From a virus (Duplodnaviria; Heunggongvirae; Uroviricota; Caudoviricetes), in the IMG/VR virus record IMGVR_UViG_3300042402_002792: a DNA stretch of 64,000 nucleotides; one strand, written 5' to 3'. The translations under genes were made by a program, and so were the position numbers. A model generated the notes under the pieces. The model worked only from the letters and a program-made list of their open reading frames with translations, did not search any database and had not been told where the DNA came from. This document shows, in pieces, positions 2,070 through 36,628 of the stretch. The number at the start of each line of letters is the position of its first letter. Within the stretch, counting starts at the first letter, position 1.

Positions 2070-2073
2070 ACGG

Positions 2074-2079
2074 TAAATA
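2074..2079 (+). promoter_or_regulatory. T4-like late promoter motif TAAATA
   Basis: TAAATA lies 18 nt upstream of the ATG at 2098. The same motif recurs upstream of many structural genes. Confidence 0.55.
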
Positions 2080-2097
2080 TACTAAAGAGAGTGGATT

Positions 2098-2820
2098 ATG
2101 GCAATTCAATTAGTTAACTTGGGTACTTACGCTAACGACAGCACAGGCGACGATTTACGCACGGCTTTTAATAAAGTTAATGCTAATTTTACAGAATTAG
2201 ACACTATTGTTGCTGTTAACGCTGCAAACTTAGGAACTGGCACTGGGGTGTTTGCTAGCAAAGTTGACGACCCTGGCCTAGGTAATTTGTTTAATTTTAG
2301 AAGTATTGCAGTAGGATCTAATCTTACCTTAAGTCTAGCTAATAATACAATTACAGTTAATACACAAAGCACAATAACTGCTAACTTAATAGGTAATGTT
2401 ACAGGTAATGTTACAGGTAATGTTACAGGTAATGTTACAGGTAATGTTACAGGAAATGCAGATACTGTAACTAATGGTGTTTACACAACATCAAGTATCA
2501 ATGCGTTAGCCGATGTTGACACAGTGACAATTGCACCGACAAACGGGCAGGCGCTTGCATGGAGCGGGACTGCATGGACTCCGCAGACTATTGCAGCAGG
2601 TGTAAGCAGAATCATAGCAGGAACTAACGTAACAATAAGTCCAACTAACGGGTTAGGCCAAGTTACTATTAATTCGTCAGGTGTAAGTGATGTTTTTGAT
2701 CTAGGCGAATTTCAACAAACATACGAAAACCCTATTAGTTACTTACTCGATCAAGTAGGAGTAGACGTTGGTACATTTACTTCGCCAGCATCATTTACCA
2801 TAGACGGCGGAACATTTTAA
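2098..2820 (+). CDS. Baseplate/tail fibre protein with T4 gp9/gp10-like N-terminus
   Basis: The N-terminus LGTYANDSTGDDLRTAFNKVNANFTEL resembles the T4 gp10 N-terminal motif. It also has (GNVT)5 repeats. Confidence 0.7.
   Translation: MAIQLVNLGTYANDSTGDDLRTAFNKVNANFTELDTIVAVNAANLGTGTGVFASKVDDPGLGNLFNFRSIAVGSNLTLSLANNTITVNTQSTITANLIGNVTGNVTGNVTGNVTGNVTGNADTVTNGVYTTSSINALADVDTVTIAPTNGQALAWSGTAWTPQTIAAGVSRIIAGTNVTISPTNGLGQVTINSSGVSDVFDLGEFQQTYENPISYLLDQVGVDVGTFTSPASFTIDGGTF
2392..2451 (+). repeat. Perfect 12-bp tandem repeat (GGTAATGTTACA)x5 encoding (GNVT)5
   Basis: Read directly from the sequence. Confidence 0.95.
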
Positions 2821-2837
2821 AGGTTTAGGAGAACAGA

Positions 2838-4136: not shown

Positions 4137-4137
4137 T

Positions 4138-6879
4138 ATGAGTATTGTAGATTACATTCGAAAACAAGAATACATTGTCACTGTAAAAAATTTTGCAGAT
4201 TTAGATGTAATCTATGATGAGTTAGAATCTGTTGGAAAAACACCTCCTACTGCGGACTTAGAAAGATCTGTCCATTGTGTACATCGTAAACCATTAAGTA
4301 GGAATACTCATTATCTTCTAGCAGAATGGGAAGCATTAGAATTAGCCAAAGATCCAAGAATATTAAGTGTTGAACTAGCTCCACATCTTAAAGGTATTAA
4401 TCCAGGGTTGTTATACGAAGAAGAAGACATTACTGTATCAGAAGAACAGTTTGAAAACAGTATAGATGAAACTACAGCATCAATTCAACAAACATCTAGT
4501 GGTTGGGATAAATCAGGTTCTACCAGTAATACCATGCGTAATTGGGCACTGCTTCGTTGCATCGAAGGAGTACAACGATCAGGATGGGGCGGTACTGGCT
4601 ATGAAGGCGGTGGTACAGGAACTGCTAGTCAAACCGGAACAATTACTCTAAGTCAAATAGGTCGAAATGTTGACGTTGTAATCTGTGACGAAAATGGTAT
4701 AGTGTGGAACCATCCTGAATATGCTGTAAACGCAGACGGAACTGGTGGTTCAAGAGCTGTTCAATATAACTGGTTCCAGCACAACTTAGCAGTTAAAGGT
4801 ACATCGCCGGGAACTTATTCTTACGGTACAGGAGGCCACTCTACTCACGTGGCAGGCACAGTAGCGGGCAACACTCAAGGTTGGGCTCGAGCTGCTAACA
4901 TCTATAACATTTATTATGCAGCCGGTGACGACAGTAATTACACCTTTCCGTATGTAATGGATTATGTTAGAGAGTTCCACAGAACAAAATCAGTAAATCT
5001 ATCTACTGGTAGAAAAAATCCTACTATTGTTAACAACAGTTGGGGCATGAGTATATTTCCGTCTGAATGGTCATTTTCGGACATTACGGCTGTAACATAT
5101 AGAGGTATTAGATACACACCAGAAACTGGTGCTACAACCTATACTGGTTACAGCGGAGTATGTACTTCTAATCAAAGATTAGCTACTTTACTAGGTGAAG
5201 AAAACTTTGGTAATAGAATTTCAACGGCAGGCCCATATACACCCCCGTCTGGATTTATTGTAAATAAACCAGCTAGTTGGAGTCAAACAGGCCAACAAGC
5301 ATATTTGACACAGTTATCAGAACCAGACGGTACATATACTATTACCGTTGACGGTCCTGCAGATCTAGATCTAATACACAATGTTGCAGTAGATGCTATT
5401 TCAGGTGTAATTAGTTTAGAAGGTGAAATAATAATTTACGACAGCAGTAGTACTGAAGTTACTAGATTTTCTGCTGGACCAGTGAGCGATACTAATGGCG
5501 GAACTATAGAGATTGATATTCGAGAAACATACAGCTTAACAAATAACGAAGTATATACTATTATATTCAATACAATTAGTCAAGCAGATGATCCTGTGGC
5601 ACAATTTGCTACAGCTATGAGTTTAACTGTTAAAACAGAAAGTTCGCCAGCTAGTGCGAGTGTTACTAGTATTACAAATAGTTTACTAGGACCAGCATCG
5701 TTAACAGCGTCAACTACACCAACTGACATCGCAGGAAATACAACTAACCCAAACGACGATGCATTTTGGACATTAAATTTGCCTTTTTCAATTGAATACT
5801 TAGGCAATTCTTATAGCACAATTTATGTAAGCACTAATCATTATCTTACATTTGGTGGTGGATCTTTTAATTATACTGGGTTGGGGCCTTCTAATCCTAA
5901 TTTACCAAAGATCATGTGGTCATGTGCTGATAACTCTATACAAAGAATTTATTACGGAACAGAGGGATCTGCACCAAATAGAACTTATCGAGTTCGTACA
6001 GAAGGCAATGCGTCAACAACTGGCATATTAGGTAGCCCGGGCATGGTATGTGAATGGGTCTTCTACGAAAACAACCCCACGCAAATTGATCTTCAACTAG
6101 GTGTAAACAATAGAAAAACAACTGGTAGCGGCTTTACTACTAACCAGCTTAATTCGTGGGGTTTTATTTCAGGACAACGTATTCCAGTACGTGTTACTGC
6201 ATTAGACACTGACCTTGAAGATGCTTATGCAGAAGGAATTATACAAGTAGGTGCGGCAGGAAACGGACGTTGGAAGCACGATTTGCCTGGCGGATTAGAC
6301 TGGGATAACACATTTGAAATGGGGACACGATATCCTGGTCAAGTATACTATTACATGAGAGGCACTAGTCCTACGGCAAACGATACTGCGGCAGATGGAA
6401 CTTTTGAATTACCTGCTATATGTGTAGGATCTGTTGACACAAGATCCACAGACCAAAAAGTAGTTTACAGTGATTGCGGACCTGGTGTGGACATATGGGC
6501 ACCAGGCACTTACATTATAAGTTCGTATACCGGTGGTGTAAGCGATTCTCGAGGCACTGGCCTAGTTGGTAAATTGTCTGGTACTAGTATGGCAAGTCCG
6601 CAAGTTTGCGGTGTGATAGCTTGTGCATTAGAAAAATATCCTCACTGGAATCAATATCAAGCAAAGCAGTATATACAAGCTATTGCTAGATCAAATCAAC
6701 TAACTGAATCCAACGGTGGGCCTGCAGATGGACAAGACTTACAAAATGCACCTAATTTATTTTTATATTATAAAATAGAAAGACAAACAACTGGATTAGC
6801 ATTTCCTAGTTTAACTAATAGTTTAAGACCGGAGACTGGTGCTGTTTATCCTAGAACAAGAATTAGAAGGACTTACTAA
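4138..6879 (+). CDS. Subtilisin-like S8 serine protease with large insertion, probably virion-associated
   Basis: Catalytic motifs: VDVVICD (D184), HSTHVAGTVAG (H234), AAGNG (N709), SGTSMASPQV (S817). Located in the tail operon. Confidence 0.9.
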   Translation: MSIVDYIRKQEYIVTVKNFADLDVIYDELESVGKTPPTADLERSVHCVHRKPLSRNTHYLLAEWEALELAKDPRILSVELAPHLKGINPGLLYEEEDITVSEEQFENSIDETTASIQQTSSGWDKSGSTSNTMRNWALLRCIEGVQRSGWGGTGYEGGGTGTASQTGTITLSQIGRNVDVVICDENGIVWNHPEYAVNADGTGGSRAVQYNWFQHNLAVKGTSPGTYSYGTGGHSTHVAGTVAGNTQGWARAANIYNIYYAAGDDSNYTFPYVMDYVREFHRTKSVNLSTGRKNPTIVNNSWGMSIFPSEWSFSDITAVTYRGIRYTPETGATTYTGYSGVCTSNQRLATLLGEENFGNRISTAGPYTPPSGFIVNKPASWSQTGQQAYLTQLSEPDGTYTITVDGPADLDLIHNVAVDAISGVISLEGEIIIYDSSSTEVTRFSAGPVSDTNGGTIEIDIRETYSLTNNEVYTIIFNTISQADDPVAQFATAMSLTVKTESSPASASVTSITNSLLGPASLTASTTPTDIAGNTTNPNDDAFWTLNLPFSIEYLGNSYSTIYVSTNHYLTFGGGSFNYTGLGPSNPNLPKIMWSCADNSIQRIYYGTEGSAPNRTYRVRTEGNASTTGILGSPGMVCEWVFYENNPTQIDLQLGVNNRKTTGSGFTTNQLNSWGFISGQRIPVRVTALDTDLEDAYAEGIIQVGAAGNGRWKHDLPGGLDWDNTFEMGTRYPGQVYYYMRGTSPTANDTAADGTFELPAICVGSVDTRSTDQKVVYSDCGPGVDIWAPGTYIISSYTGGVSDSRGTGLVGKLSGTSMASPQVCGVIACALEKYPHWNQYQAKQYIQAIARSNQLTESNGGPADGQDLQNAPNLFLYYKIERQTTGLAFPSLTNSLRPETGAVYPRTRIRRTY

Positions 6880-9479
6880 TGGCTTTGACAATTTGGTCAC
6901 AACCTTCTGGCTATCGATTTGGCACCATTCAAGAACGCACAATTGTTAATCAACAATTACCAGTGTCTTATAGTAGCGGTTTTGATGACAGTACTAATCT
7001 TGACTTTAAAGTTATATCAGGCAAATTACCTGAAGGACTAAGATTAGAAAACGATATGATTGTTGGTACGCCATTTGAAGTGCCTAGAACTACTGATTTT
7101 AAATTTGTTATTAGAGCCACTTACGACAGTCAAATAGCCGATAGGACGTTTTACTGGACTATAGAGGGATCTGATGAACCTAGGTGGGATACACAAGCAG
7201 GATCACTTCCAGTAGGTCCCAACGATCGATATTTTGTTCTTGATAGTAGCTACATAGATTTTCAACTACAGGTAACAGACTTTGATACTGCTGCTGGCCA
7301 AAAACTTAGTTTTTTCCAGCCTAAAGGAGGCGGTCAATTACCGCCAGGATTAATACTAACAAAAACAGGTAGGATAGTAGGTTGGGTACAGCCAGCATTA
7401 GCTATCCCAGAAACTGCTGGTAACGGATCTTATGATGCAAGTTACTTTGATAATGTAGCTTACGATTTTGGTTATAGATCTAGTAACGGGTTTGATAGTT
7501 TTTTATACGAAACTACATTATTTGATTATAGTACCGATTCGTTAATACCAAAAAAACTTAATAGATACTACGAATTTTTAGTAACCGTTACCGATGGCGA
7601 TACTTCGTCAACTAGAAAATTTAAAATATATGTTGTTGGCGACGATTATTTTAGAGCAGATAACGTAGCAGTCAGTGCAGGCAATGGCACATTTACTACA
7701 GACGGAACTTACGTAAGAGCTCCTATATGGGTAACTCCTAACAACCTTGGCATTAAACGTGCCAACAACTATCTAACATTTAAATTAGATACATACGAAT
7801 CAATTAATTTAGGACAAATAACTTACAGACTAGATCCAGTAAATCCCACTATTAGTGCTAAAACATTTACTACATCACCTAATGAAAATAAAATTGGTAA
7901 AAATCTTGTAAGGATAAAAAGTTCTACTGGAGTCCCGCAGATTAATAACAAATTCTGGTTAAGAGATTATATTACAGGAGCAAGCACTACTGTTTATAAT
8001 ATTGTAAACGTACAAACTGTGTCAAGTACAGAATATGTACTAACAGTTCTGCCTACACTTGAAGTAAAATTAGATAATAACAAACTAGTCGAATTTGGCA
8101 CACCTAGTGTTTTACCTCCAGGCATGCAGTTTGATCTCGGAACTGGAGAAGTATTTGGGGTTGTTCCTTATCAGCCTGCAATTACCTTAGATTACTCTTT
8201 TACAATTACTGCCACAAGATACGGCGATCGCGGTGAAACAGCTAACTCCAAACGCACATTTTCTGTAACTACTATAGGCGAAATTGACAGCATAATGTCA
8301 TGGAATAGCTTAGAAAATTTAGGTTCTATTGGTGCTAATTACATCAGTAATTTATTTGTATCAGCGTCATCCACTGTTAAAGATTCTGTTATATTGTATG
8401 TTAAAACTTCTGGAGAATTACCTCCGGGGTTAACATTAAACTTAGACGGAGAAATAACCGGTAAAGTAAAACAATTTTCAACTGGAACTAATGATGGGTT
8501 AACTACAATTGATCAAGGAAATCTTGTTTTAGATAATTCTACAACTTCCGTTGATAGAGAATTTATTTTTACTGTACAAGCTAGAGATATATTAAGCTAT
8601 AGTGCTATAAGCAGAACATTTACCTTAAGAATCGATACCCCTAATGATCGATTGTATAGTAATTTACATGTTCGACCGTTCTTGAAACAAAATCAAAGGG
8701 AACTTTTTAGATCATTTATTACAGATAGTAATGTGTTTGATATTACAGCTATCTATAGACCAAGTGACCCAAATTTTGGTATACAGCAAGATTTAAAAAT
8801 GTTAGTGTATGCAGGCATTGAAACTGTAAATGCTGCAAAAGTAGTTAGTGCTATAGGCAGAAATCATAAACCAAAAAAGTTCTCTTTTGGTGAAGTTAAA
8901 AAAGCTCAAGCTAAAATTAGAGGAACTAATACAGTAGTCTACGAAGTGATCTATTTGGATGTAGTAGATCAATTAGAAAAAGGCAAAACAAAACTACCGT
9001 TACAAATATTTGGATCTAGTCACAAAAAAGCTATAACCGTTGATCAAAATAATCAGTATTATAACGGGCCATTTAATCAAGATACGTACTACTGGGATCC
9101 AGCAGATCCATTTGCTGTCTCAGCAGATTCTAACAATGTATTTGCAGACGATCCTTATACCCAAAGGCGTTTTCCTGTAAGTGTACGATTATGGCGAGAG
9201 CGTATTAAAGCTATTGGTTTACGAGATCGCGATTACTTACCTTTATGGATGCGTACTATACAAGACGGAACATTTAATGAAATTGACTGGGTTCCTGCAA
9301 TACCGTTATGTTACTGTAAACCTGGACGAGGTGATGATATTCTTTTAAATATCAAAAATAGAAATTTTGATTTTAGACAAATCGACTATGTAATTGATCG
9401 CTACATAATAGATTCTGTCACCGGTAATAGCAACGATAAATATATCGTATTTGAGAATGATAGGACAAGTATAACATGA
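6879..9479 (+). CDS. Virion structural protein with putative Ig (He_PIG-like) repeats
   Basis: Repeated LP(P/E)G(L/M)-x-L/F-x3-G-x-I-x-G units; translationally coupled to the protease gene. Confidence 0.65.
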   Translation: MALTIWSQPSGYRFGTIQERTIVNQQLPVSYSSGFDDSTNLDFKVISGKLPEGLRLENDMIVGTPFEVPRTTDFKFVIRATYDSQIADRTFYWTIEGSDEPRWDTQAGSLPVGPNDRYFVLDSSYIDFQLQVTDFDTAAGQKLSFFQPKGGGQLPPGLILTKTGRIVGWVQPALAIPETAGNGSYDASYFDNVAYDFGYRSSNGFDSFLYETTLFDYSTDSLIPKKLNRYYEFLVTVTDGDTSSTRKFKIYVVGDDYFRADNVAVSAGNGTFTTDGTYVRAPIWVTPNNLGIKRANNYLTFKLDTYESINLGQITYRLDPVNPTISAKTFTTSPNENKIGKNLVRIKSSTGVPQINNKFWLRDYITGASTTVYNIVNVQTVSSTEYVLTVLPTLEVKLDNNKLVEFGTPSVLPPGMQFDLGTGEVFGVVPYQPAITLDYSFTITATRYGDRGETANSKRTFSVTTIGEIDSIMSWNSLENLGSIGANYISNLFVSASSTVKDSVILYVKTSGELPPGLTLNLDGEITGKVKQFSTGTNDGLTTIDQGNLVLDNSTTSVDREFIFTVQARDILSYSAISRTFTLRIDTPNDRLYSNLHVRPFLKQNQRELFRSFITDSNVFDITAIYRPSDPNFGIQQDLKMLVYAGIETVNAAKVVSAIGRNHKPKKFSFGEVKKAQAKIRGTNTVVYEVIYLDVVDQLEKGKTKLPLQIFGSSHKKAITVDQNNQYYNGPFNQDTYYWDPADPFAVSADSNNVFADDPYTQRRFPVSVRLWRERIKAIGLRDRDYLPLWMRTIQDGTFNEIDWVPAIPLCYCKPGRGDDILLNIKNRNFDFRQIDYVIDRYIIDSVTGNSNDKYIVFENDRTSIT

Positions 9480-19928: not shown

Positions 19929-20436
19929 TCCTATACTTAAAGAAATACTTCAAGAGTTTGACTTTACAAACCCAGTAGTTGATCCAAAAAAATTAGAAGA
20001 AGACATGATTACAATCATGATCGAAAATAACGGTCGTGGGTTGGCTGCAAGTCAAGTAGGAATCAATGCTAGAGTGTTTGTAATTAAAACAGAAAATATC
20101 AAAGAAGTGTTTACTCCGTTTGCAGTATTCAATCCAAAAGTTATAGCAACCAGTGACGATCTTATTCAAGATTACGAAGGTTGTTTGAGTTTTCCTAATT
20201 TACTGTTGCCGGTTAAACGTCCGGAACATGTAGTGGCCGAATTTCTTGACAGAAATGCAAATACCTGTATAATAAGATTTGACGGTATCGATGCAAGGTG
20301 TTTCTTGCACGAACTAGATCATCTAAACGGAGTTTGTTTTACTGATAATATCAGCAAACTCAAATTGGACTTAGCAATTAAACGACAGAGAAAATTAAAT
20401 GGTAGAACCAAGCACAGAACTACAACTAGTATTTGA
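19903..20436 (+). CDS. def: Peptide deformylase
   Basis: GLAASQVG, EGCLS and HELDH motifs. Confidence 0.93.
   Translation: MLELVQYPNPILKEILQEFDFTNPVVDPKKLEEDMITIMIENNGRGLAASQVGINARVFVIKTENIKEVFTPFAVFNPKVIATSDDLIQDYEGCLSFPNLLLPVKRPEHVVAEFLDRNANTCIIRFDGIDARCFLHELDHLNGVCFTDNISKLKLDLAIKRQRKLNGRTKHRTTTSI
20246..20273 (+). promoter_or_regulatory. Intragenic sigma70-type promoter TTGACA-16-TATAAT upstream of clpA
   Basis: Both hexamers are perfect, lie inside def, and sit 125 nt upstream of clpA. Confidence 0.55.
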
Positions 20437-22657
20437 AAAAGCAATTGACGTTGCTAAACGTCTTAAACACGAATATCTCACAATAGAACATCTATTGTTT
20501 TCCATGCTCTGTGACGAAAGTTTTCACAAATGTGTAACTGGCTACGGAGCTGATGCAGATTTTCTTAAAAAGAATCTTGAACTATATTTGAAAAATAAAT
20601 GCGACGAGATTGTTAACGAAGATCCAGATATTAAGCCTCGTAAAACTAATGCTGTAGAGCGTGTGCTTAATCGTGCATTTACACAAGTTCTTTTTAACGG
20701 GCGTCAAAAAATTGAACCTACTGATGTGTTTTTAGCTATAATGAGTGAAAAGAAATCATATGCACATTATTATATTCAGCAGGCAGAAATTGACAAAGAA
20801 AAATTTGCAGAATATCTTAATTCAGAAATTACTGAAGAAGTAGAAGAAGAAAATCCTAGAGACGGTCAAAGCGAACGTGCATTAAAAGCATTTACTACTA
20901 ATTTAAATGAAGACGTAAAGAAAAATAAGATTGATCCGGTTATCGGCCGAATCGATGAGTTAGAAAATATTGCACTCTCGTTAGGTCGTAGATCTAAATC
21001 AAATGTAATACTTGTTGGCGATCCAGGTGTCGGAAAAACAGCCATTGCTGAAGGACTTGCTCACAACATTGTAAATGGTGCAGTACCAGAATTTTTAAAA
21101 GAGTATACTGTTTACAACTTAGACATTAGTGCTATGCTTGCAGGTAGTAAGTACCGAGGTGACTTTGAAGAACGTTTTAAACTTGTGCTTAAAGCATTAA
21201 GCAAGAAAGGTAAAACAGTTCTGTTCATTGATGAAGCACACATGATCAGTGGAGCAGGTGCCGGTGGACAAAGTAGCAGTAACGACCTTGCTAACATGAT
21301 GAAACCTGCATTAAGCAAAGGAAACATTAAAGTTATTGCTTCAACTACATGGGAAGAATATCGCAAGTACTTTGAAAAGGATCGTGCGCTGATGCGTCGA
21401 TTCCAGCGTGTAACTATTGATGAGCCTACTCCAGAAATGGCTATTCAAATCCTTAAAGGTATTAAAAAGTATTACGAGCAATATCATAAGGTTAAGATTA
21501 CAGATGATGCTATTAAATCTGCAGTCAAACTTAGTGTCAAATATCAAGCAGATAAGAAATTACCGGACAAGGCAATTGATCTTATTGACTGTGCTTGCTC
21601 TAGATTTAATCTTAAATTAGATCAAGAACGTATTATTAACGAAGCATCTATTCAATTTGAATTAAGCAAAATGGTTAATATGCCTAATGAACAAATTGCT
21701 GAACAAGAAAGTAACAACTTGGCTAGCCTTGAGGCTAACTTGCAACAAGAAGTGTACGGACAAGATAATGCTATTACAGAAATTGTAGACAAGATCTTAG
21801 TAAGTCAAGCAGGCCTTAAACCTGATAACAAGCCGGTGGGTAGTTTTGTATTCATGGGTCCAACTGGTACAGGTAAGACTGAAACTGCTAAAGCCCTGGC
21901 TAAACATTTAGGTGTTAAGCTACTTAGATTTGATATGAGTGAATATCAAGAAAAACACTCAGTAGCTAAACTAATTGGTAGTCCTCCTGGGTATGTAGGG
22001 TTTGAAGAAAATGCTGGATTACTAATTACACAAATTCAAGAAAATCCTAATTGCGTATTGTTGCTCGACGAAGTTGAAAAGAGTCATCCAGATGTAAGCA
22101 CTATTCTGTTGCAAATGATGGATAACGGTTTTGTTACTGGTAGTAATGGGAAGAAAGCAGATTGCCGCAATTTAATTTTAATTCTTACTACTAATGCAGG
22201 TGCTCAAGAATCTGAAAAGAATCGTATCGGGTTTAGTACTCAAGAACGTGATTACGAAGACAAAGAACTTAAAAAATTCTTTGCGCCTGAGTTCCGTAAC
22301 CGGTTAGATGCTATTGTTACATTTAGCAAACTTACTAACGAAACTATGATTAAAGTAGTTGGCAAGTTTATGTTAGAAGTTAAAAATCAAGTAAAAGAAA
22401 AAGGCATTAAGATTAAAGTTACAGACGAAGCTATTGATACACTTATTAAACAAGGCTTTGATAAGAAAATGGGAGCTCGTCCGTTGCAACGTGTTATTGA
22501 CAAGGAAATCAAAAGACCTATGGCTAAGCTAATGTTGTTTGGAGATTTAAAAGGTGGTGGCACGTTGACTATTGACAGCAAGGATGATAAAATTGTGCTA
22601 GTTGTCAAGCCAAAGATAAAGGTTACAGATGAAACTGCCGTTATCGATCCAAACTAA
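20399..22657 (+). CDS. clpA: ClpA-type Hsp100 ATPase
   Basis: N-domain HEYLTIEHLL; two AAA+ modules (GDPGVGKT, GPTGTGKT); RFDMSEYQE; IGF loop. Confidence 0.92.
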   Translation: MVEPSTELQLVFEKAIDVAKRLKHEYLTIEHLLFSMLCDESFHKCVTGYGADADFLKKNLELYLKNKCDEIVNEDPDIKPRKTNAVERVLNRAFTQVLFNGRQKIEPTDVFLAIMSEKKSYAHYYIQQAEIDKEKFAEYLNSEITEEVEEENPRDGQSERALKAFTTNLNEDVKKNKIDPVIGRIDELENIALSLGRRSKSNVILVGDPGVGKTAIAEGLAHNIVNGAVPEFLKEYTVYNLDISAMLAGSKYRGDFEERFKLVLKALSKKGKTVLFIDEAHMISGAGAGGQSSSNDLANMMKPALSKGNIKVIASTTWEEYRKYFEKDRALMRRFQRVTIDEPTPEMAIQILKGIKKYYEQYHKVKITDDAIKSAVKLSVKYQADKKLPDKAIDLIDCACSRFNLKLDQERIINEASIQFELSKMVNMPNEQIAEQESNNLASLEANLQQEVYGQDNAITEIVDKILVSQAGLKPDNKPVGSFVFMGPTGTGKTETAKALAKHLGVKLLRFDMSEYQEKHSVAKLIGSPPGYVGFEENAGLLITQIQENPNCVLLLDEVEKSHPDVSTILLQMMDNGFVTGSNGKKADCRNLILILTTNAGAQESEKNRIGFSTQERDYEDKELKKFFAPEFRNRLDAIVTFSKLTNETMIKVVGKFMLEVKNQVKEKGIKIKVTDEAIDTLIKQGFDKKMGARPLQRVIDKEIKRPMAKLMLFGDLKGGGTLTIDSKDDKIVLVVKPKIKVTDETAVIDPN

Positions 22658-23288: not shown

Positions 23289-23329
23289 AAAGATCCCTTT
23301 TACGATAAATATTGTAAGAGGGATTTTTT
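23289..23329 (+). terminator. Terminator hairpin whose loop contains late promoter GATAAATA
   Basis: ATCCCTTTTAC (23293-23303) pairs with GTAAGAGGGAT (23314-23324); loop GATAAATATT; followed by T5. Confidence 0.7.
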
Positions 23330-25950: not shown

Positions 25951-26579
25951 GTTTTGAATTTGAATTTACATTAGATAAGTTAAAAACATGTATTCACAAG
26001 AATCGTGAACCAGAACTATGGTATAATGCCATGTGCGAATACTTGCCTAAGTTTGGTATTACTACTCCTGCTAGAGTTGCAGGCTTTGTAGCACAATGTC
26101 AACATGAAAGTTTAGACTTTACTATATTAACAGAAAACTTAAACTACAGCGCAAAAGGTCTAAGAGGTTTGTTTGGAAAATATTTTCCAACCGACGAGCT
26201 TGCTAAACAGTATGAGCGCAAACCAGAAATGATTGCCAACAGAATCTATGCTAGTCGTATGGCCAACGGCAATGAACAGAGCGGAGATGGATGGCGCTAT
26301 AGAGGCCGAGGCATACTTCAAATTACAGGTCGTGCAAACTATACACAATGTAGTCGTGACTTGTTTGGGGATACAACCCTTGCAGACAATCCTGATCTAG
26401 TGCGTACACCAGAATATGCTATTATTACAGCCTGCTGGTTTTGGTATAAGAATCAACTAAATGCTATTTGTGATCAAGGTGACATTGTTCTACTAAGTAA
26501 AAAAATCAATGGCGGAACTATTGGTTTAGAAGATCGTATCAAACACTGGAATCAGTGTTTAGATGTTTTTGAAGGTTAA
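25947..26579 (+). CDS. Glycoside hydrolase family 19 lysozyme/endolysin
   Basis: FVAQCQHES, ENLNYS, YRGRGILQITGRANY and INGG..GL.DR motifs. Confidence 0.9.
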   Translation: MSFEFEFTLDKLKTCIHKNREPELWYNAMCEYLPKFGITTPARVAGFVAQCQHESLDFTILTENLNYSAKGLRGLFGKYFPTDELAKQYERKPEMIANRIYASRMANGNEQSGDGWRYRGRGILQITGRANYTQCSRDLFGDTTLADNPDLVRTPEYAIITACWFWYKNQLNAICDQGDIVLLSKKINGGTIGLEDRIKHWNQCLDVFEG

Positions 26580-26580
26580 T

Positions 26581-27627
26581 ATGTTTTTAAGAGAATTAAT
26601 GCAGCGAGTAGATCAAGAGGATTACCATCCAAACGATCCGCCACCTGGTCCAGAAACTAAACCTACAATGCCAGCAGGTACTGTTAAGGTAGATGTTGAT
26701 GACGTATACGATTGGTACAAGTTAGGTCAGCATATTAGTAACATGAAAGGTTTAGGAAAACACGACTTTGGTCAAGGACCTCCTAGCACTATATTCTCTT
26801 TTGGCAGCGAAGAAGAAGAACACAAGTATATTGATGCGTTAAAGAAAACAGGTCTTACAACAACTGATATAGATCCTGTTGACCCTAATCAGCCTAAAGG
26901 CATGCCTCGTCAGAAAACAGATCCTACGTATAATGTAAAAGAAGCTAAAAAACGTAAACGTAAACCTCGTTATGCAGCTTACGGCCCTGGTCCTTACGGA
27001 ATGTACGGATACTATCCAGGTTATAGCGGAGACTCTGGATCCGGCGAAGGCGGTGGGGATGGCGGTATGGAAGAAAACTTTGCAGACGGCCGTAATCCAC
27101 AAGATAAAGGTGACAGCAAACGCCACGGTATTAACACTAAAGCATCAGTGAGTAGTTTACGTAAGACTGCTAAACAAGGTGGTCGTAAAGGACAACTAGC
27201 ACATTGGTTAGCTAACATGAAATCAGGTCGTAAAAAAGCGAATGAAAGTAAAGAAGCAGGATTTGATTTTAAAATATTTGAAGACTTTTTTCCTATTGCT
27301 ATGAAAGTATTAGGTATTACAAAGTTACCTAAAATTAAACTAGTCATGCAAGTTGACGATCCAGACCAACCCACATTCGGTCGTTTTGACAATACTGATT
27401 TAACTATAGAATTAGGAATGGCTAATCGTCATCCTATAGATATACTGCGTACATTAGCTCACGAACTTACACACTTTAAACAGTATCTAAACGATCAACT
27501 AGGTCCTAAAAGTGGAGAAACAGGAAGTCCTGAAGAAAACGAAGCACACGAATTAGCAGGTGTAATTATGCGTCACTTTAACAAGATGCATAGGCATTAT
27601 TTTAACAGTAGGCCATTAGAACCATGA
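26581..27627 (+). CDS. Modular putative head protein with C-terminal HExxH metallopeptidase-like domain
   Basis: Start MFLRELM; LRTLAHELTHFKQ...EENEA. Confidence 0.65.
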   Translation: MFLRELMQRVDQEDYHPNDPPPGPETKPTMPAGTVKVDVDDVYDWYKLGQHISNMKGLGKHDFGQGPPSTIFSFGSEEEEHKYIDALKKTGLTTTDIDPVDPNQPKGMPRQKTDPTYNVKEAKKRKRKPRYAAYGPGPYGMYGYYPGYSGDSGSGEGGGDGGMEENFADGRNPQDKGDSKRHGINTKASVSSLRKTAKQGGRKGQLAHWLANMKSGRKKANESKEAGFDFKIFEDFFPIAMKVLGITKLPKIKLVMQVDDPDQPTFGRFDNTDLTIELGMANRHPIDILRTLAHELTHFKQYLNDQLGPKSGETGSPEENEAHELAGVIMRHFNKMHRHYFNSRPLEP

Positions 27628-27812
27628 AAGTACAGGATATAATTATTAAAGAAACTGCTACAGCAGGTGCTACAAGTGCTGGAAATATAGCATCCGGTCC
27701 TATGTATGCTAACAAACAGGGTAAAACCTACAAAAACAAAGACGGTACAACCAAAAACGCTCAAGATGTAAAAGGTGCAAATCTACTCACTGGCGGCGCT
27801 ATCAAACGATAA
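27624..27812 (+). CDS. Small putative head protein
   Basis: MKVQDIIIKE|TATAGATSAGNIA. Confidence 0.6.
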   Translation: MKVQDIIIKETATAGATSAGNIASGPMYANKQGKTYKNKDGTTKNAQDVKGANLLTGGAIKR

Positions 27813-27837
27813 ATATTAGAAATCGGAGAATTCTCAA

Positions 27838-29112
27838 ATGCATCACGACTTAATGAACAGACCAGACAACCACGAAGCTAAAATGGCTCGTGCTGACTTA
27901 TTCAAACTAGCACAATATAGCTTTAAGCTATTTAAAATGATTAATGAAAATCAAGAACTTGAAGGCTGGGTACAGGCTAAGATTACCAAAGCCGCAGATT
28001 ACATTGCCAGCGTATACCATTATATGGAATACGAAATGAAAGTTAACGAATACGGCGATGCTGTTGAAAACTCAGACATGTATTCAGAAACTATTCGTCG
28101 TTCTTTCCAACAAAAGCTAGTAGAAGCTAAAGAGATGGCTAAGAAGGCTAAAGCTAAAGCTGAAAAGGCTGGAAAAGAATTAGATGAAAATATGGCTGTT
28201 CCACAAAATCCAGACGGTGCTACTGCTCCTCCACCAAAAGGTAAAGATGGAAGGTACCCTATTGTTACTTCAGGTCCTAACAAAGGCAAGCGTTGGAGTC
28301 CACAAACGCCTGGTCCTACTAATCCTGCAATGAAAGAGGGACTTAAAGGCGGACAAAGTAAGTTAGACGCAGACAAAGATGGTAAGTTAGAAAAATCTGA
28401 TTTTGCTAAATTACGTGCTGGTAAAAAAGTCAAAGAAGAATTTGACAAAGTTGGCGATACAAAGAAAACAAAAACTGGTGAGCTTACTAAAACTGACAAA
28501 GGCGTTGTTCATAAACGTACAGATTATACCGATGACGAGCACGGTGAAGCACCTAGCACTGTGAAACAAAAGTCAGCTGCTGAAAAGAAAGCAGATAAAT
28601 CCAATGACATTAAACTACCAAAGCACCAAGGTAATACCTGGGGTATGAAAGGTGGCGAAAAGTTTGGTAAGAAAATGGAAAGTGCTAAGCCAGACTTTTT
28701 AGACATGGACAAAGACGGTGATAAGAAAGAGCCAATGAAGAAGGCCGTTGCTGATAAGAAAAAAAATCCATTTGCAAAAGTAAAAGAAAATACTCAAGCA
28801 GCACAAGCAAGAGCAGACAGAGCCAATGTGGCTAACACTATGGCTAATCAAACAGCGCCAAGTAAACCAGGAGCAACTACTCCTGTGGGAGAAGGCAAAT
28901 GCAATCATACACCTAAAGGTAAATCATGCCCAGTACACGGTTTGAAAGAGTGTGGTGGTATGTATGAAGGCGACAAGTTTGATCCATTAAAGCATGTAAA
29001 GAATCCTACTAAGGGTGAGAAAGATGCTGCTAAAGATGTTAAACGTGGTAGCTATGGCGATCGTGCAGCTATGTTAAAGTCAGCAGAAAAAGACGGTCGT
29101 TTAAAAGGTTAA
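27838..29112 (+). CDS. Lys/Glu-rich modular putative internal head protein
   Basis: GATAAATA at 27808-27815; many x-x-E-delimited modules; two DxDxDG motifs. Confidence 0.7.
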   Translation: MHHDLMNRPDNHEAKMARADLFKLAQYSFKLFKMINENQELEGWVQAKITKAADYIASVYHYMEYEMKVNEYGDAVENSDMYSETIRRSFQQKLVEAKEMAKKAKAKAEKAGKELDENMAVPQNPDGATAPPPKGKDGRYPIVTSGPNKGKRWSPQTPGPTNPAMKEGLKGGQSKLDADKDGKLEKSDFAKLRAGKKVKEEFDKVGDTKKTKTGELTKTDKGVVHKRTDYTDDEHGEAPSTVKQKSAAEKKADKSNDIKLPKHQGNTWGMKGGEKFGKKMESAKPDFLDMDKDGDKKEPMKKAVADKKKNPFAKVKENTQAAQARADRANVANTMANQTAPSKPGATTPVGEGKCNHTPKGKSCPVHGLKECGGMYEGDKFDPLKHVKNPTKGEKDAAKDVKRGSYGDRAAMLKSAEKDGRLKG

Positions 29113-29116
29113 AATT

Positions 29117-29920
29117 ATGGACATGAAGAAAATTCTACAGGCCGTCGACGGAGCTTCTTCGAAGAAGCCTGCTGAAGGTTCTAATGACATGAAACATTTT
29201 ATGCAGATTGTAGAGGGTCGAGGCCCTCTTAATCGTTTAACACAAGCTGAATCTATTGCTATGCAAACAGCAGCTAAGAAAAAAACAATCACTAGTCCTG
29301 TATTAAACGTTAAAGAAGATGCTAAACCTAGTATGATAGGAAAGTATTTTAAAACAGTACAAGAAGAATTATTAGAAGCAGAACAAAAACATAAAGAACG
29401 TTCTAAAAAATTAGCAGAACGTGTAATTGAACGTGTTACTCCTAATGCAGATGGATCATTGCCCGATCCAAGTATCAATCGCCTTACAGGCAAACCTAAT
29501 CCTCCAGCAGCAGAACCAGCACCTACTAATGTAAAGCCAAGTGGCGCAACTGTAGAGTACGGTGGTGCAACTTATAATCTAGTTGGTGTGTTCGGTGACG
29601 GCATTAGACCAAGAATAAGTCGTGGTGATAAAGTTATTCCAGGTAAAGCATATGTTCTTGGTGATAAGATGTATGTGTTATTAGACCAAGGTGTCAGCGA
29701 AGATAGTGATCCTTGCTGGGACAGTCACAAGATGGTAGGTACAAAGAAAAAAGGCGGCAAGACTGTGCCTAATTGTGTACCTAAAGAAAGCGTACAGAAA
29801 AAAGGACCTGCAGGACAGTTAAAAGCCAAAGCTAAAGTTGATGTTAAAGGCACTGTACTAGGATCAAAAGAAAAGAGTCAAAAAGGGTTGAGAGGTAAGT
29901 TAGTAGGTGGCTCAACTTAA
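29117..29920 (+). CDS. Modular putative internal head protein
   Basis: MDMKKILQAVD start; DPCWDSHKMVGTKKKGGKTVPNCVPKE module. Confidence 0.7.
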   Translation: MDMKKILQAVDGASSKKPAEGSNDMKHFMQIVEGRGPLNRLTQAESIAMQTAAKKKTITSPVLNVKEDAKPSMIGKYFKTVQEELLEAEQKHKERSKKLAERVIERVTPNADGSLPDPSINRLTGKPNPPAAEPAPTNVKPSGATVEYGGATYNLVGVFGDGIRPRISRGDKVIPGKAYVLGDKMYVLLDQGVSEDSDPCWDSHKMVGTKKKGGKTVPNCVPKESVQKKGPAGQLKAKAKVDVKGTVLGSKEKSQKGLRGKLVGGST

Positions 29921-30012
29921 GAACACACCTTAGGACCGGTACTCGTTACCGTGTGTGTAGGCGGCTGCTGCCTAGACTAGCGATTCGCTACCGTGATGTT
30001 TAAAGTGAGCAT
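29921..30012. ncRNA. Candidate structured ncRNA with rRNA-matching segments (strand unresolved)
   Basis: Helices: ACACAC/GTGTGT, CGGTA/TACCG, TAGGC/GCCTA, TAGCG/CGCTA. Exact complements of 23S 1920-1931, 23S 1929-1937 and 16S 519-528 (E. coli numbering). Confidence 0.65.
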
Positions 30013-30015
30013 GAA

Positions 30016-30021
30016 TAAATA
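30016..30021 (+). promoter_or_regulatory. Late promoter motif TAAATA
   Basis: 24 nt upstream of ATG 30046. Confidence 0.5.
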
Positions 30022-30045
30022 TATTATAGAAATTTGGGGAACAAA

Positions 30046-31107
30046 ATGGACTTAAAAGCTCTAATAGCAAAGATGGATCAAATTGAAAGTAAGAAGATTC
30101 TTACTGAAGCCGAAGATCGTCCCGATGCTAAAAAGAAAGAAACTACCTGGACAGATAAAGATGGCAAGAAGCATCCTGCTACTCAAGTTCAAGGTCATCA
30201 AAGTGTTAAAGCTGATAAAGAAGCTGACAAAGAAAAGAAAAAAGACATGGACGAAAGTATTGTTCTTCAAAGTGCTATTGCTAAGGCACTAGCTGAAGAA
30301 TTTGGCTACGATTTAGACGAGCGTGTTACTCCTGACGGTAAAGGCGGTTACACTGGTGGATTAAGACCTCAACCAGCAGCAGCACCAGCAGCAAATGCTC
30401 CTGCTAATCCCTGGGCTAATGATCCTGAAAAAGCTAAAGCATGGGGTGCGCTAAGTCCTGAAGATCAAAAATGGTTAGGTGGGGCTGATCCTACTGATCA
30501 ATTTATCCTAGCTCGTGCGCCTAACAAAGGTAAGCCAGCAGCTCCAGCAAGTCTAGCTCCTGCTAGCCCAATGGCAAATAAGACACGCATGCCAGCGGCA
30601 GCACCTGATGCGGCAGCAGGAGCAGCTACTAAGCCAACAGATACAAGCGGTGCGCCAGGCGCACAAGACGATGTTACAGGAGTAGATGCTGCTGTTGCTG
30701 CTCAACAAGATGCTGCTGGACCAACAGATGCAGAGATTGCAGCTAACAATGCTGCATTAGGTAACTTTGATGCTGATGTAGCAGGCGGTAGTGCCGGCGA
30801 AGAGGCTCCTGAGCTTGCAATGGGAGCTGGACAGCCAGCAGCTGGCGGAATTAATCCTACTACATTAAATCGTTACAAAGAATTACTAGATAAATTAGAA
30901 GCTACAGGTAAAGCACCTGCACCTGCAAAACCTACACAAGTTGCTCCTGCTCCTAAAAAGCCAGCAACCGGTGCTGGTACTAAACCAGCTAATAGCTTAC
31001 CAGGAACAGCAGTTCCAGGTGGTGGAAACATTGCCGATAATCCAGCAGCTGAAAGTGTTGATAGATTAGCAGACGATCAAATTTTAGCAATCATTAGAAA
31101 TATTTAA
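30046..31107 (+). CDS. Ala/Pro-rich putative internal head protein
   Basis: MDLKALIAKMDQIE start behind GGGGA SD; low-complexity modules. Confidence 0.7.
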   Translation: MDLKALIAKMDQIESKKILTEAEDRPDAKKKETTWTDKDGKKHPATQVQGHQSVKADKEADKEKKKDMDESIVLQSAIAKALAEEFGYDLDERVTPDGKGGYTGGLRPQPAAAPAANAPANPWANDPEKAKAWGALSPEDQKWLGGADPTDQFILARAPNKGKPAAPASLAPASPMANKTRMPAAAPDAAAGAATKPTDTSGAPGAQDDVTGVDAAVAAQQDAAGPTDAEIAANNAALGNFDADVAGGSAGEEAPELAMGAGQPAAGGINPTTLNRYKELLDKLEATGKAPAPAKPTQVAPAPKKPATGAGTKPANSLPGTAVPGGGNIADNPAAESVDRLADDQILAIIRNI

Positions 31108-33325: not shown

Positions 33326-33592
33326 ATGTCTACAAGAATGTACGGCCCAGAAGAGAAGGCCAAACTTGAACGCCTTATTAACGAAGGATCTACTGTACTT
33401 CGTGAAATTGAAGATCTTAAAGAAGGTCTCAAAGAAACTGTTAAAGCGGTTGCGGAAGAACTTGAAATTAAACCTTCAATTATTAATAAAGCAATTACTA
33501 TTGCACACAAAGACAATTGGAAAGAACATGAATCTGCATGGGAAGATGTTGAAATGATCTTAGGCGTCACTGGACGCTTACCTAAGGATTAA
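33326..33592 (+). CDS. dsDNA-binding protein (T4 DsbA/GapR-like)
   Basis: EIEDLKEGLKETVKAVAEELEIKPSIINKAITIAHK pattern. Confidence 0.6.
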   Translation: MSTRMYGPEEKAKLERLINEGSTVLREIEDLKEGLKETVKAVAEELEIKPSIINKAITIAHKDNWKEHESAWEDVEMILGVTGRLPKD

Positions 33593-33964: not shown

Positions 33965-36628
33965 ATGTACGTAGACGCTTACTTTCAGCGTGATTCTGAT
34001 ATTATTAAAGTAGTAGAAAGAACCGCAGAAGGCAAAAGACAATATAAAGAATTTCCAGCTAGGTATACATTTTATTATGCAGACCCTAAGGGAAAATATC
34101 AATCAATTTACGGCGAACCTTTAAACAGGGTAGTTTGTAAAAACTCAAAAGACTTTCGTAAAGAGTTATCAATTAACTCAAATAAGAAACTATACGAAGC
34201 CGACATCAATCCACTGTTTGTAGTATTAAGTGAAAATTATCTAAATGCAGAATCGCCTAAGCTACACGTAGCTTTTTGGGATATTGAGGTTGACTTCGAT
34301 CCAGAACGTGGCTATGCTAGTCCAGACGATGCATTTATGCCTATTACTGCTATTGCAGTTCACCTACAATGGTTAGACACTTTAATTTGTTTAGCTATAC
34401 CTCCTAAGGGGATGACTGTTGAACAAGCACAAGAACAGGTTAAAGAATTTCCTAATACACACATCTTTGATAACGAAGCAGACATGCTAGATACATTCTT
34501 GAATTTGATTCAAGATGCAGATGTGGTTAGTGGATGGAACAGTGAAGGTTTTGATATGCCTTATACTGTTAATCGTATTACCAAAGTACTCAGCAAAGAT
34601 GACACTCGCAGATTGTGTCTATGGGATCAATTTCCAAAAAAACGTGAGTACGAAAAGTTTGGCAAAACTGCTACAACATACGACTTACATGGTCGTGTAC
34701 ACATGGACTATCTCGAACTATACAGAAAGTACACTTATGAAGAAAGACATACCTATCGATTGGATGCTATCGGAGAAATGGAAATTGGAGAACGCAAAAC
34801 AGTCTATGAAGGCACGCTCGACCAACTATACAACAATGACTTCCGTAAGTTTGTGGAATATAACAGGCAAGACTGTGCGCTACTCAACAAACTTGACCAA
34901 AAGCTCAAGTTCCTGGATCTAGCTAACAAACTAGCACACGATTGTACTGTGTTGTTGCAGACTACTATGGGTGCTGTAGCAGTTACTGAACAAGCTATTA
35001 TTAACGAATGTCATCGTAGAGGTATGCAGGTTCCTAATCGTCCTAAGATGGATGATAGAGAAGATGCTGGTGCTGCCGGCGCTTATGTTGCATATCCCAA
35101 AGAAGGTATTCAAGACTGGATCGGTTCACTGGATATTAACTCACTATACCCCAGTGCGATTCGTGCATTGAACATGGGTCCGGAAACTATTATTGGACAG
35201 TTAAGACCTATAGCTACTAATTCATTTATTGAAGAACAAATTGCTAAAGGTAAATCATTTGCGGCTGCTTGGGAAGGTATGTTTGGTAGCTTAGAATACA
35301 CTGCCGTAATGAACAAAGAAGTTGGTACAGAAATTACCATAGACTGGCAAGATGGTAATGTAGATATACTAAGTGCCGCAGAGGTATATAAATTAATCTA
35401 CGAAAGTAATCAACACTTTATGCTATCGGCAAATGGTACTATTTTTACTTACGAAAAAGAAGGTATCATTCCAGGCCTACTAAAGCGTTGGTATGCTGAA
35501 CGTAAAGAAATGCAGGCTAAACTAAAAGAATCAATTGCTGCCAGCAATAAGATTGAAGAAGAATACTGGGACAAACGCCAACTAGTTAAGAAGATTAACT
35601 TAAACAGTTTGTATGGTGCTATTCTTAATCCTGGTTGCAGATTCTTTGATAAACGCATCGGACAATCAACTACACTAACTGGTCGTCAGATTGTTAAACA
35701 TATGGCTAGTAAAGTTAATGAAATTATTACTGGCGATTACGACTACAGAGGTAAGTCTATTATCTATGGTGACACTGACTCATGTTACTTTAGTGCCTAC
35801 AAAACTCTACAAAAAGAAATCGGTAATGGTTCTATTCCTTGGACTAAAGAAACTGTAATTCAACTTTACGATCAAATAGGTTCCGAAGTTAACAATACAT
35901 TCCCACAGTTCATGTTGGATGCATTTCACTGTCCAAAAACACGTGGCGAAGTTATTAAAGCAGGACGTGAAATTGTTGGATCAAAGAGTTTGTTCATTAC
36001 TAAAAAACGTTATGCTGTTCTTTACTATGATAAAGAAGGCAAGCGACAGGACGTAGAAGGTAAGCCTGGTAAGATCAAGGCTATGGGACTTGATCTCAAG
36101 CGTTCAGATACTCCTGAATTTATTCAAAACTTTTTAAGTGATGTACTAGAACGTGTGCTGTCCGGTTCTACTGAAAACGAAGTGCTTGATATGATTACAG
36201 CGTTTAGATCTGAATTTAAAGCTAGACCCGGTTGGGAAAAAGGCTCGCCTAAACGTGCTAACAATATTACAGAATATCAAAAGAAAGAAGAACGTCAGGG
36301 TAAAGCTAATATGCCAGGACACGTTAGAGCCAGTATTAATTGGAATACGCTCAAACGTATGTACAATGACAAATACTCAATGAATATTACAGACGGTGCC
36401 AAAGTTATTGTCTGTAAACTTAGAGACAATCCACTGGGATTTACTTCAGTAGCGTATCCAGTGGATGAATTAAGATTGCCCAAATGGTTTAAGGATTTAC
36501 CATTTGATCACGAAGAAATGGAAGCCACCATTATTGACAACAAATTAGAAAACCTTATCGGTGTTCTAAATTGGGATATTCGCAGTACAGAGCAGACAAA
36601 TACTTTTAATAAATTATTTGACTTCTGA
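33965..36628 (+). CDS. Family B DNA polymerase (T4 gp43-like)
   Basis: Exo I DIE, Exo II NSEGFD, Exo III YNRQD; DINSLYPS, KINLNSLYG and YGDTDS. No intein. Confidence 0.97.
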   Translation: MYVDAYFQRDSDIIKVVERTAEGKRQYKEFPARYTFYYADPKGKYQSIYGEPLNRVVCKNSKDFRKELSINSNKKLYEADINPLFVVLSENYLNAESPKLHVAFWDIEVDFDPERGYASPDDAFMPITAIAVHLQWLDTLICLAIPPKGMTVEQAQEQVKEFPNTHIFDNEADMLDTFLNLIQDADVVSGWNSEGFDMPYTVNRITKVLSKDDTRRLCLWDQFPKKREYEKFGKTATTYDLHGRVHMDYLELYRKYTYEERHTYRLDAIGEMEIGERKTVYEGTLDQLYNNDFRKFVEYNRQDCALLNKLDQKLKFLDLANKLAHDCTVLLQTTMGAVAVTEQAIINECHRRGMQVPNRPKMDDREDAGAAGAYVAYPKEGIQDWIGSLDINSLYPSAIRALNMGPETIIGQLRPIATNSFIEEQIAKGKSFAAAWEGMFGSLEYTAVMNKEVGTEITIDWQDGNVDILSAAEVYKLIYESNQHFMLSANGTIFTYEKEGIIPGLLKRWYAERKEMQAKLKESIAASNKIEEEYWDKRQLVKKINLNSLYGAILNPGCRFFDKRIGQSTTLTGRQIVKHMASKVNEIITGDYDYRGKSIIYGDTDSCYFSAYKTLQKEIGNGSIPWTKETVIQLYDQIGSEVNNTFPQFMLDAFHCPKTRGEVIKAGREIVGSKSLFITKKRYAVLYYDKEGKRQDVEGKPGKIKAMGLDLKRSDTPEFIQNFLSDVLERVLSGSTENEVLDMITAFRSEFKARPGWEKGSPKRANNITEYQKKEERQGKANMPGHVRASINWNTLKRMYNDKYSMNITDGAKVIVCKLRDNPLGFTSVAYPVDELRLPKWFKDLPFDHEEMEATIIDNKLENLIGVLNWDIRSTEQTNTFNKLFDF

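Follow-up and report, generated by a model that had tools for sequence, protein, structure and literature searches.

A conserved pseudoknotted RNA of large lake-water phages with unpaired loops complementary to 23S rRNA

The species 1 and 2 RNAs of phage T4, rnaC and rnaD, are orphan stable phage RNAs of about 120-140 nt, of unknown function, which are encoded among the ipI-ipIII internal-head-protein and lysozyme genes. They are, by context, the nearest analogue of the element presented here. The rRNA guide and chaperone RNAs (box C/D, H/ACA and U3-type) rely on a structured scaffold combined with short antisense segments to conserved rRNA, and to our knowledge no such system has been described in bacteria or phages. 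Base-pairing sRNAs of bacteria and phages are short and structured, with conserved single-stranded, seed-like loops. Intergenic conservation and covariation in metagenomic phage contigs, as found for the present element, also characterize orphan structured motifs, namely the Weinberg/Breaker motifs of Rfam and the candidates from IMG/VR. Fremin et al. 2023 (PMC10690425) give 10,006 such candidate structured RNAs from IMG/VR, and the motif described below may be among those left unnamed.

The element lies on the + strand of a 64,000-nt stretch of DNA, called the window in the following, whose source is a large phage. The DNA runs containing it are lake-water metagenomes. The relevant features of the window are listed here by position.

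20399-22657: Lon-like protease
29117-29920, + strand: upstream ORF of 267 aa, of low complexity and without a named family, the TAA stop of which (29918-29920) abuts the element
29919-30011, + strand: whole structured element, about 93 nt
30013-30029, + strand: AT-rich, late-promoter-like motif GAATAAATATATTATAG for the next gene, outside the RNA
30046-31107, + strand: downstream ORF of 353 aa, Ala/Pro-rich, without a family
33326-33592, + strand: gene of an 88-aa DsbA-like dsDNA-binding protein, a syntenic marker followed by polB
33965-36628: family-B DNA polymerase, downstream of the DsbA-like gene

The intergenic gap extends over 125 nt, from the TAA stop to the ATG at 30046, and all genes around the element in the window are on the + strand. 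The two flanking ORFs were taken for head-protein genes in the original prediction. Both encode low-complexity proteins, Lys-rich or Ala/Pro-rich, and neither belongs to a named PHROG or Pfam family, so that this label stays a guess. The (C/G)GATAAATATT motif found at 30013-30029 recurs upstream of the genes at 23330 and 27838. A minus-strand TATAAT at 30023-30028, proposed as a promoter, does exist, but it sits within this + strand late-promoter-like AATAAATAT motif, recurrent upstream of other genes.

The fold of the element consists of five helices and a pseudoknot, with the following parts.

29924-29929, + strand: 5' strand of helix P1, pairing with 29952-29958
29930-29936, + strand: bulge UUAGGAC, core of the conserved motif CCUUAGGAC, antisense to 23S 1922-1930
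29937-29951, + strand: P2 hairpin CGGUA/UACCG with loop CUCGU, obtained by RNAalifold on the MAFFT alignment
29959-29973, + strand: P3 hairpin AGGC/GCCU with a 7-nt loop GGCUGCU at 29963-29969; all four pairs change on both sides
29974-29977 with 29998-30001, + strand: P4, which encloses P5 and covaries
29980-29982 with 29992-29994, + strand: P5, which covaries
29983-29991, + strand: loop L5, AUUCGCUAC, 9 nt, antisense to 23S 1930-1937
30002-30011, + strand: 3' tail AAAGUGAGCA, pseudoknot partner of the P3 loop

The core of this assembly is the pairing of the P3 loop GGCUGCU with the 3' tail AGU(G)AGC, which involves 29964-29966 with 30010-30008 and 29967-29969 with 30006-30004, G30007 being bulged, while P4 and P5 are nested in the connecting strand. 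Such a loop-tail pairing, accompanied by compensatory changes, corresponds to the definition of a hairpin-type (H-type) pseudoknot. The compensatory versions of the P3 loop and tail are the following.

GGGUGCU with GUGACCA, in family variants
GGCCACU with AGUGGC, in family variants
GGCUACU with GUAGC, in family variants
CCGUUGA with UCAACGG, in the related sequence L065
GCUGU with GCAGC, in Pseudomonas phage PA5oct

The pseudoknot helix (helix 4) is 95.8% paired, with three pairs changed on both sides. Over the whole model-guided alignment A2, 90.5% of the cells are paired, compared with 77% in shuffles, and none of 500 shuffles reaches the observed value; the pairing falls to 31-44% in slid-partner controls on the same alignment. 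Covariation of the helices in relatives had been put forward as a check, and it is observed, with 347 cells of A2 changed on both sides versus 119 in shuffles, a count that none of the 500 shuffles reaches either. Covariation is seen at every pair of P3, P4 and P5, and RNAalifold applied to the unfitted MAFFT alignment independently recovers P2, P3, P4 and P5. For P1, pair 7-44 switches from A-U to U-A in nine sequences, and in the window copy the (AC)n/(GU)n repeats allow slippage of the register. P2 shows a compensatory CUGG...CCA in one relative, and is replaced by a different hairpin or missing in others. The conserved motif CCUUAGGAC is bulged in the window type; other, simpler subfamilies have it as a hairpin loop. 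A kissing interaction between loops 1 and 5 was considered and rejected, as only 3-bp complements were found, differing by class.

Taken as a single sequence, the gap has an ordinary minimum free energy on both strands (z = -0.69 for + and -0.27 for -). The earlier statement that it folds into helices thus finds no support in the single-sequence energy, but is supported, for P1 to P5 and the pseudoknot, by the covariation among relatives. The well-supported helices contain 40 G-U cells versus 3 A-C cells, which designates the + strand as the folded one. We consider it practically certain that the element belongs to a real structured RNA family of the + strand. As regards expression, one metatranscriptome contig (29742-29955) links the upstream ORF to the 5' half of the element, and a second one covers 29998-30252. 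Both were found in a single run, with none in four other runs; they are of low depth, could be DNA carry-over, and give neither ends nor strand.

The extent of the family was delineated with three seeds in IMG/VR. The 16-mer ACCTTAGGACCGGTAC gave at least 120 matches, and all those listed carry the same element of about 95 nt, in 85 distinct versions. A second seed, without this 16-mer, also gave at least 120 matches and adds variants with other P2 hairpins. The third seed, restricted to the P3 loop and tail, again gave at least 120 matches, mostly new among those listed; they reveal a wider superfamily with several 5'-domain architectures, and this set includes at least 176 distinct sequences. 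A covariance model, R1, was built from the first seed set. In cmsearch, it scores the element at 100.5 bits (E 6.7e-25), as the sole significant match in the 64-kb window. With R1, related loci have a single copy each. Five large contigs, 128-345 kb in length, likewise have one significant match apiece, the longest of them (345 kb) being 99% complete.

Outside these uncultured phages, the 16-mer ACCTTAGGACCGGTAC has 13 chance matches in representative genomes of bacteria and archaea (596 Gb), none of which is the element, and a blastn search of 50,697 cultured phage records with the window copy gave no match. The covariance models alone recover a member in a cultured phage, a diverged copy in the Pseudomonas jumbo phage PA5oct (MK797984.1, 115466-115561, + strand), which scores 30.6 bits for R1 and 37 bits for R2. 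It occupies an unannotated stretch separating gp189 from gp190, and ten sister phages carry it with 99% or full identity. Four ncRNAs have been reported for PA5oct (PMC7318152); they are located elsewhere in the genome and the element is not among them. R2 gave no match in T4, QD01, fENko-Kae01, Vibrio 2.275.O, SCTP-2, Atu_ph07 and Phosso.

The original prediction did not recognize a named RNA family, and this is borne out by Rfam 15 (4227 models), which gives no match to the element up to an E-value of 10, nor any at gathering level in 12 diverse related loci. ARAGORN detects no tRNA or tmRNA in the window, and in related loci the tRNAs and tmRNAs are separate genes. The sequences of the element were not found in an RNA context in the papers searched. 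The family is large, single-copy and phage-specific, common to hundreds of lake-water large phages, and uncatalogued.

A genomic landmark is shared by many members. In 120 of 192 loci, a DsbA-like gene of about 86-88 aa is found no more than 4 kb downstream, in many cases adjacent to the RNA, with a DNA polymerase after it. Homologues of the 33326-33592 product are annotated DsbA in phages MIJ3 and QD01, and in cultured jumbo phages the DsbA-annotated homologues are also just upstream of the DNA polymerase, but without the RNA. The immediate neighbours of the element are heterogeneous and mostly of unknown kind, so that a fixed adjoining gene was rejected. An association with tRNA clusters was rejected as well, the link being present in only 4 of 60 loci. 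Stop-codon read-through was rejected since the upstream stop codon occurs in all three frames relative to the element in related loci, and there is therefore no conserved extension peptide or read-through product.

The complementarity to rRNA has to be considered in this structural context. Three strings had been singled out in the gap, ACCTTAGGACCG at 29927-29938, GCGGCTGCTG at 29961-29970 and TTCGCTACC at 29984-29992, and they are found exactly there. Comparison with the E. coli K-12 rrnH sequence confirms that they are exact reverse complements of 23S 1920-1931 (12 nt), 16S 519-528 (10 nt) and 23S 1929-1937 (9 nt), respectively. Two further antisense matches exist, a 9-mer to 16S 349-357 and an 11-mer (29976-29986) to 16S 1338-1348, the latter being attributed to chance because it lies in a stem that is variable across the family. 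The chance level was estimated from 20,000 shuffles of the element, giving a probability of 0.032 for a 12-mer, 0.020 for three matches of at least 10 nt, and 1e-4 (2 of 20,000) for a 12-mer together with an abutting 9-mer. A lone 12-mer is uninformative, since the whole window contains 26 rRNA matches of at least 12 nt. The abutting pair has a single instance in the window, versus roughly 0.25 expected. Conserved 8-mers of the family have 109 matches to antisense rRNA versus 57-85 in sense and reversed controls, a modest excess.

The proposal that a + strand RNA pairs with rRNA has to be divided at this point. Its 16S part is refuted, because the segment concerned, GGCUGCU, is the pseudoknot loop and varies together with its internal partner, the 3' tail. 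Its 23S part is viable and has support at the level of the family. Both 23S-matching segments coincide with the two conserved unpaired loops of the family, and the conserved cores are CCUUAGGAC, antisense to 23S 1922-1930, and UUCGCUAC, antisense to 23S 1930-1937, two sites which abut on the target. In some subfamilies, the contiguous antisense run is extended to 13-15 nt, in either direction, and in one architecture, a simple hairpin, the entire 13-nt loop CUACCUUAGGACC is antisense to 23S. In two other loop-5 classes, the loops contain ACGCCAUUC, antisense to 23S 1968-1976, or UUACGCCA, antisense to 23S 1971-1978. When both 23S and 16S are scanned, all antisense matches of at least 8 nt that lie inside loop-5 loops fall within 23S 1927-1978, the remaining ones extending into variable stems or closing bases.

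The reading that we tentatively favour from these sequence comparisons, at somewhat less than an even chance, is that of a pseudoknot scaffold presenting anti-23S loops. The RNA would be co-transcribed with the upstream gene and would persist as a compact molecule, the rigid pseudoknot core displaying the two conserved unpaired loops. These loops would pair with abutting sites of the host 23S domain IV, at about 1917-1937, a segment covering the helix 70 region and the 3' strand of helix 69; for the second loop, the target would instead be 23S 1968-1978 in some subfamilies. In the 70S ribosome, this region of domain IV is folded and contributes bridges B2a and B3. The target being base-paired and buried in mature ribosomes, which is a point against the mechanism, the likely substrate would be nascent or immature 23S, or free 50S subunits, with an effect on late 50S assembly or subunit joining. 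An antisense PNA directed against helix 69 inhibits translation, and MazF-type toxins cleave helix 70 in free 50S subunits, which suggests that the site is accessible. No contiguous target for the 16-mer is encoded in the phage DNA examined, namely the window and five jumbo contigs; any trans target would be in the host. The more specific version, an RNA clamp whose two loops would hybridise to the abutting, universally conserved domain IV sites (helices 69-71, in the inter-subunit bridge region) in nascent or free 50S, is put forward with more reserve, at appreciably less than an even chance.

Other observations are less favourable to the anti-23S reading. The rRNA-matching segments were expected to be invariant in relatives, and they are not: of the 91 sequences in the motif-unbiased seed set, 65 keep CCTTAGGAC, 47 keep TTCGCTAC and 38 keep both. 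A 23S complement exists for loop 1 and for three loop-5 classes; no convincing one was found for the loop-5 class AGUCGUG, the second commonest with 21 members, or for the CCGGGAAU class, and some loop-1 variants (CCCUAGGAC, GGUC) would mismatch 23S. Loops 1 and 5 both contain CUACC in some subfamilies, where their targets overlap by up to 5 nt, and they cannot therefore both pair fully at once. In one class, the ACGCC of loop 5 is matched by a partner within the RNA itself, GGCGU.

This variability of the loops, with several loop-5 classes devoid of a 23S complement, is what would be expected if the RNA is real but its loops serve otherwise, for binding of a phage or host protein or for tertiary contacts, the 23S complementarity being fortuitous. 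We regard this alternative as the main rival, though short of an even chance by a clear distance. Chance matches to rRNA are frequent, common loop words such as UUCG/CGAA may contribute to the complementarity, and the synteny with a small DNA-binding protein gene could indicate a protein partner, but no such partner has been identified. The setting also resembles that of T4 rnaC and rnaD among internal-head-protein and lysozyme genes, and rnaD has a similar hairpin, ACCGG-GUCGCUA-CCGGU. A fortuitous origin accounts less easily for two matches that abut on the target and are carried by two unpaired conserved loops, or for the independent lengthening of the match to 13-15 nt in subfamilies. It would also have to explain why two further loop-5 classes fall within 50 nt in the same 23S domain, a clustering for which the rough joint chance, given the loop-1 site and with generous margins allowed, is at most 1e-3 by an analytical estimate that is partly post hoc, as are the statistics for the 23S link in general.

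The position of the element at the end of a gene calls for a different comparison, with a cis-acting 3'-end element (terminator, insulator or exonuclease block) that would close the upstream late unit before the next promoter, ancestrally that of a dsbA-polB early operon. In most related loci, the element starts at most 13 nt from the upstream + strand stop. Promoter-like sequences are found downstream of it in relatives, some of the AT-rich ATAAATA (late) type and others of the TTGACA-17-TATAAT (sigma-70) type, and its placement upstream of dsbA-polB is conserved, but the PA5oct element lies far from dsbA. T-runs of at least four within 12 nt of the tail occur in 52 of 172 members (about 30%), which leaves 70% of the members, among them the window copy, without one. 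Moreover, there is a single copy per 300-kb genome despite the many unit boundaries, and a terminator or stabiliser has no need for 9-13 invariant loop nucleotides. We consider this explanation improbable.

The pseudoknotted core, the conserved junction and loop nucleotides and the covarying stems, together with an intergenic phage location and variable neighbours, would also fit a new class of self-cleaving ribozyme or ligand-binding aptamer. The conserved nucleotides are located in terminal loops rather than in the junction core, no known ribozyme or riboswitch model of Rfam matches, and there is no consistent downstream gene. A promoter separates the element from the next gene, which leaves no expression platform. 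Such a function appears very improbable. For the conserved loop motif, a CsrA-type GGA loop was rejected, GGA being lost in the GGGC and GGUC variants, and so was a Shine-Dalgarno-like AGGA.

Hardly any credence can be given to the two other options raised initially, a minus-strand RNA that would imitate the 530 loop and helix 69 and so titrate toxins or factors, or an I-CeuI-type decoy at the DNA level: the minus strand of 29927-29951 does resemble 23S 1908-1931, with the TATAAT at 30023-30028, and shares CGGTCCTAAGGT and GGTAGCGAA with the I-CeuI homing site in 23S rDNA, but the G-U excess and the + orientation of all genes here favour the other strand, the H69-like hairpin P2 is altered or missing in many members, the 530-loop-like segment covaries with the tail, and where a LAGLIDADG site of this type is contiguous over about 19-26 bp (23S rDNA around 1910-1937), the longest contiguous match of the element is 12 bp, its 9-bp piece lying 45 nt away in reversed order, with no endonuclease or intron nearby.

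If the clamp is true, large phages infecting many hosts could steer ribosome assembly or subunit joining by means of one small RNA, which would then be the first natural regulatory RNA directed against rRNA in the bacterial world. If the 23S pairing is functional, it would more generally represent a new viral route to the host ribosome, through RNA-RNA pairing at the helix 69-71 bridge region, and a natural precedent for antisense targeting of this region. If it is not, the element remains an unexplained conserved pseudoknot worth solving.

Among known systems, T4 rnaC and rnaD are close in context and differ in structure. The hairpin at the start of T4 rnaD has the loop GUCGCUA, in which UCGCUA(C) is common to loop 5 of the element. 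With filters off, R1 finds in the T4 region only a 20-nt local match on this hairpin (E 1.6), and R2 finds no match on the whole T4 genome. In contrast with the element, the T4 RNAs are members of a tRNA cluster with tRNA-like CCA ends, and have neither the CCUUAGGAC motif nor the GGCUGCU/AGUGAGC pseudoknot. Calicivirus TURBS are also mRNA segments complementary to rRNA and located at a stop codon, but they lie upstream of an overlapping stop/start and pair with 18S h26, whereas the next start codon of the element is at least 95 nt away, behind a promoter-like sequence, and its complement is in 23S. Like bacterial and phage sRNAs, the element is probably derived from a 3' UTR, and neither a clear promoter of its own nor a Rho-independent terminator was found for it; it differs from them by its candidate target, rRNA rather than mRNA, and by its pseudoknot core. 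It differs from the orphan structured RNA motifs in that no Rfam model matches it.

Under the anti-23S reading, the closest likeness is with the box C/D, H/ACA and U3-type snoRNAs of archaea and eukaryotes, in which short segments antisense to rRNA are displayed on a scaffold. The pairing with 23S, by two segments that are not collinear, would also resemble that of EBS2 and EBS1 in group II introns. Unlike snoRNAs, the element has no C/D or H/ACA boxes and no associated modification enzyme is known: C (RUGAUGA) and D (CUGA) boxes were looked for, as was a hairpin-hinge arrangement with ACA 3 nt from the 3' end, but across the aligned members neither CUGA nor a terminal ACA is conserved, and the GUGAUGU at 29993-29999 is present in the window copy only, in variable stems. 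The element thus fails the tests for Rfam families, tRNA/tmRNA, C/D and H/ACA boxes, the homing site and T4 rnaC/rnaD. The class is rated new, with neither homologue nor model, and fits only the generic hairpin-type pseudoknot. Next to the orphan RNAs of T4, it adds to large-phage biology a widespread, single-copy class of structured RNA, with a tractable member in the model jumbo phage PA5oct.

The element, a pseudoknotted RNA on the + strand, lies within a row of low-complexity coding sequences, some of which share an upstream motif.
26563-31107, + strand: four successive ORFs encoding low-complexity Lys-, Ala- and Pro-rich proteins
23295-23320, 27800-27825 and 30013-30029: motif (C/G)GATAAATATT, recurring at three genes of the cluster
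No family match was found for these low-complexity proteins, which could be candidate internal virion proteins; two of the three translated sequences begin with MD(M/L)K-. The motif stands 15-30 nt upstream of the start codon of the three cluster genes, and its counterpart in related loci is often TTTACGGATAAAT. It is similar to TATAAATA, the late promoter of T4, and in this phage group it probably has that role.

Further downstream, two adjacent genes were compared between the window and loci L278, L279, L280 and L283-L286.
33326-33592: DsbA-like protein gene (88 aa), homologous to proteins annotated DsbA
33965-36628: family-B DNA polymerase gene, directly downstream
The small protein is modelled by AlphaFold as three helices (pLDDT 86). 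Its gene is found immediately 5' of the polymerase gene in the window, and the same order is seen in jumbo phages that have been cultured, namely Phosso, Atu_ph07, PA5oct, SCTP-2, Vibrio 2.275.O and fENko-Kae01; dsbA-polB is a module conserved over very distant jumbo phages. In PA5oct (L279, 6312-11538), the polymerase gene is annotated as split in two parts by a Hef-like homing endonuclease gene.

In two related phage contigs carrying the element, a tmRNA gene is located about 1.1-1.3 kb from it.
L053, region 29-7678, and L041, region 8374-8779: each with a tmRNA gene on the strand opposite to the element
The L053 contig also contains 17 tRNA genes, and these phages are rich in RNAs related to translation.

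Two further similarities were detected in the window. One, which is weak, involves a feature within the Ala-rich ORF.
30592-30719: long imperfect hairpin
Its match to the microRNA model MIR7526 (E 0.016, far under the gathering score) is most likely a by-product of repetitive GCA/GCU-rich coding sequence. The other is an 11-nt stretch (29976-29986) exactly antisense to the universally conserved 16S 1338-1348, which was rejected as a meaningful complementarity because it sits in P4/P5, stems that vary freely across the family. It provides a useful internal example of an rRNA match arising by chance.

Loop 5, the 9-nt loop of the P5 hairpin, also recalls one of the small stable RNAs of phage T4.
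T4 (L277), 5148-5167, minus strand: 5' hairpin of rnaD (species 2 RNA), ACCGG-GUCGCUA-CCGGU
The word UCGCUACC, antisense to 23S 1929-1936, is common to this starting hairpin and to loop 5, a sequence likeness that may reflect either distant kinship or coincidence.
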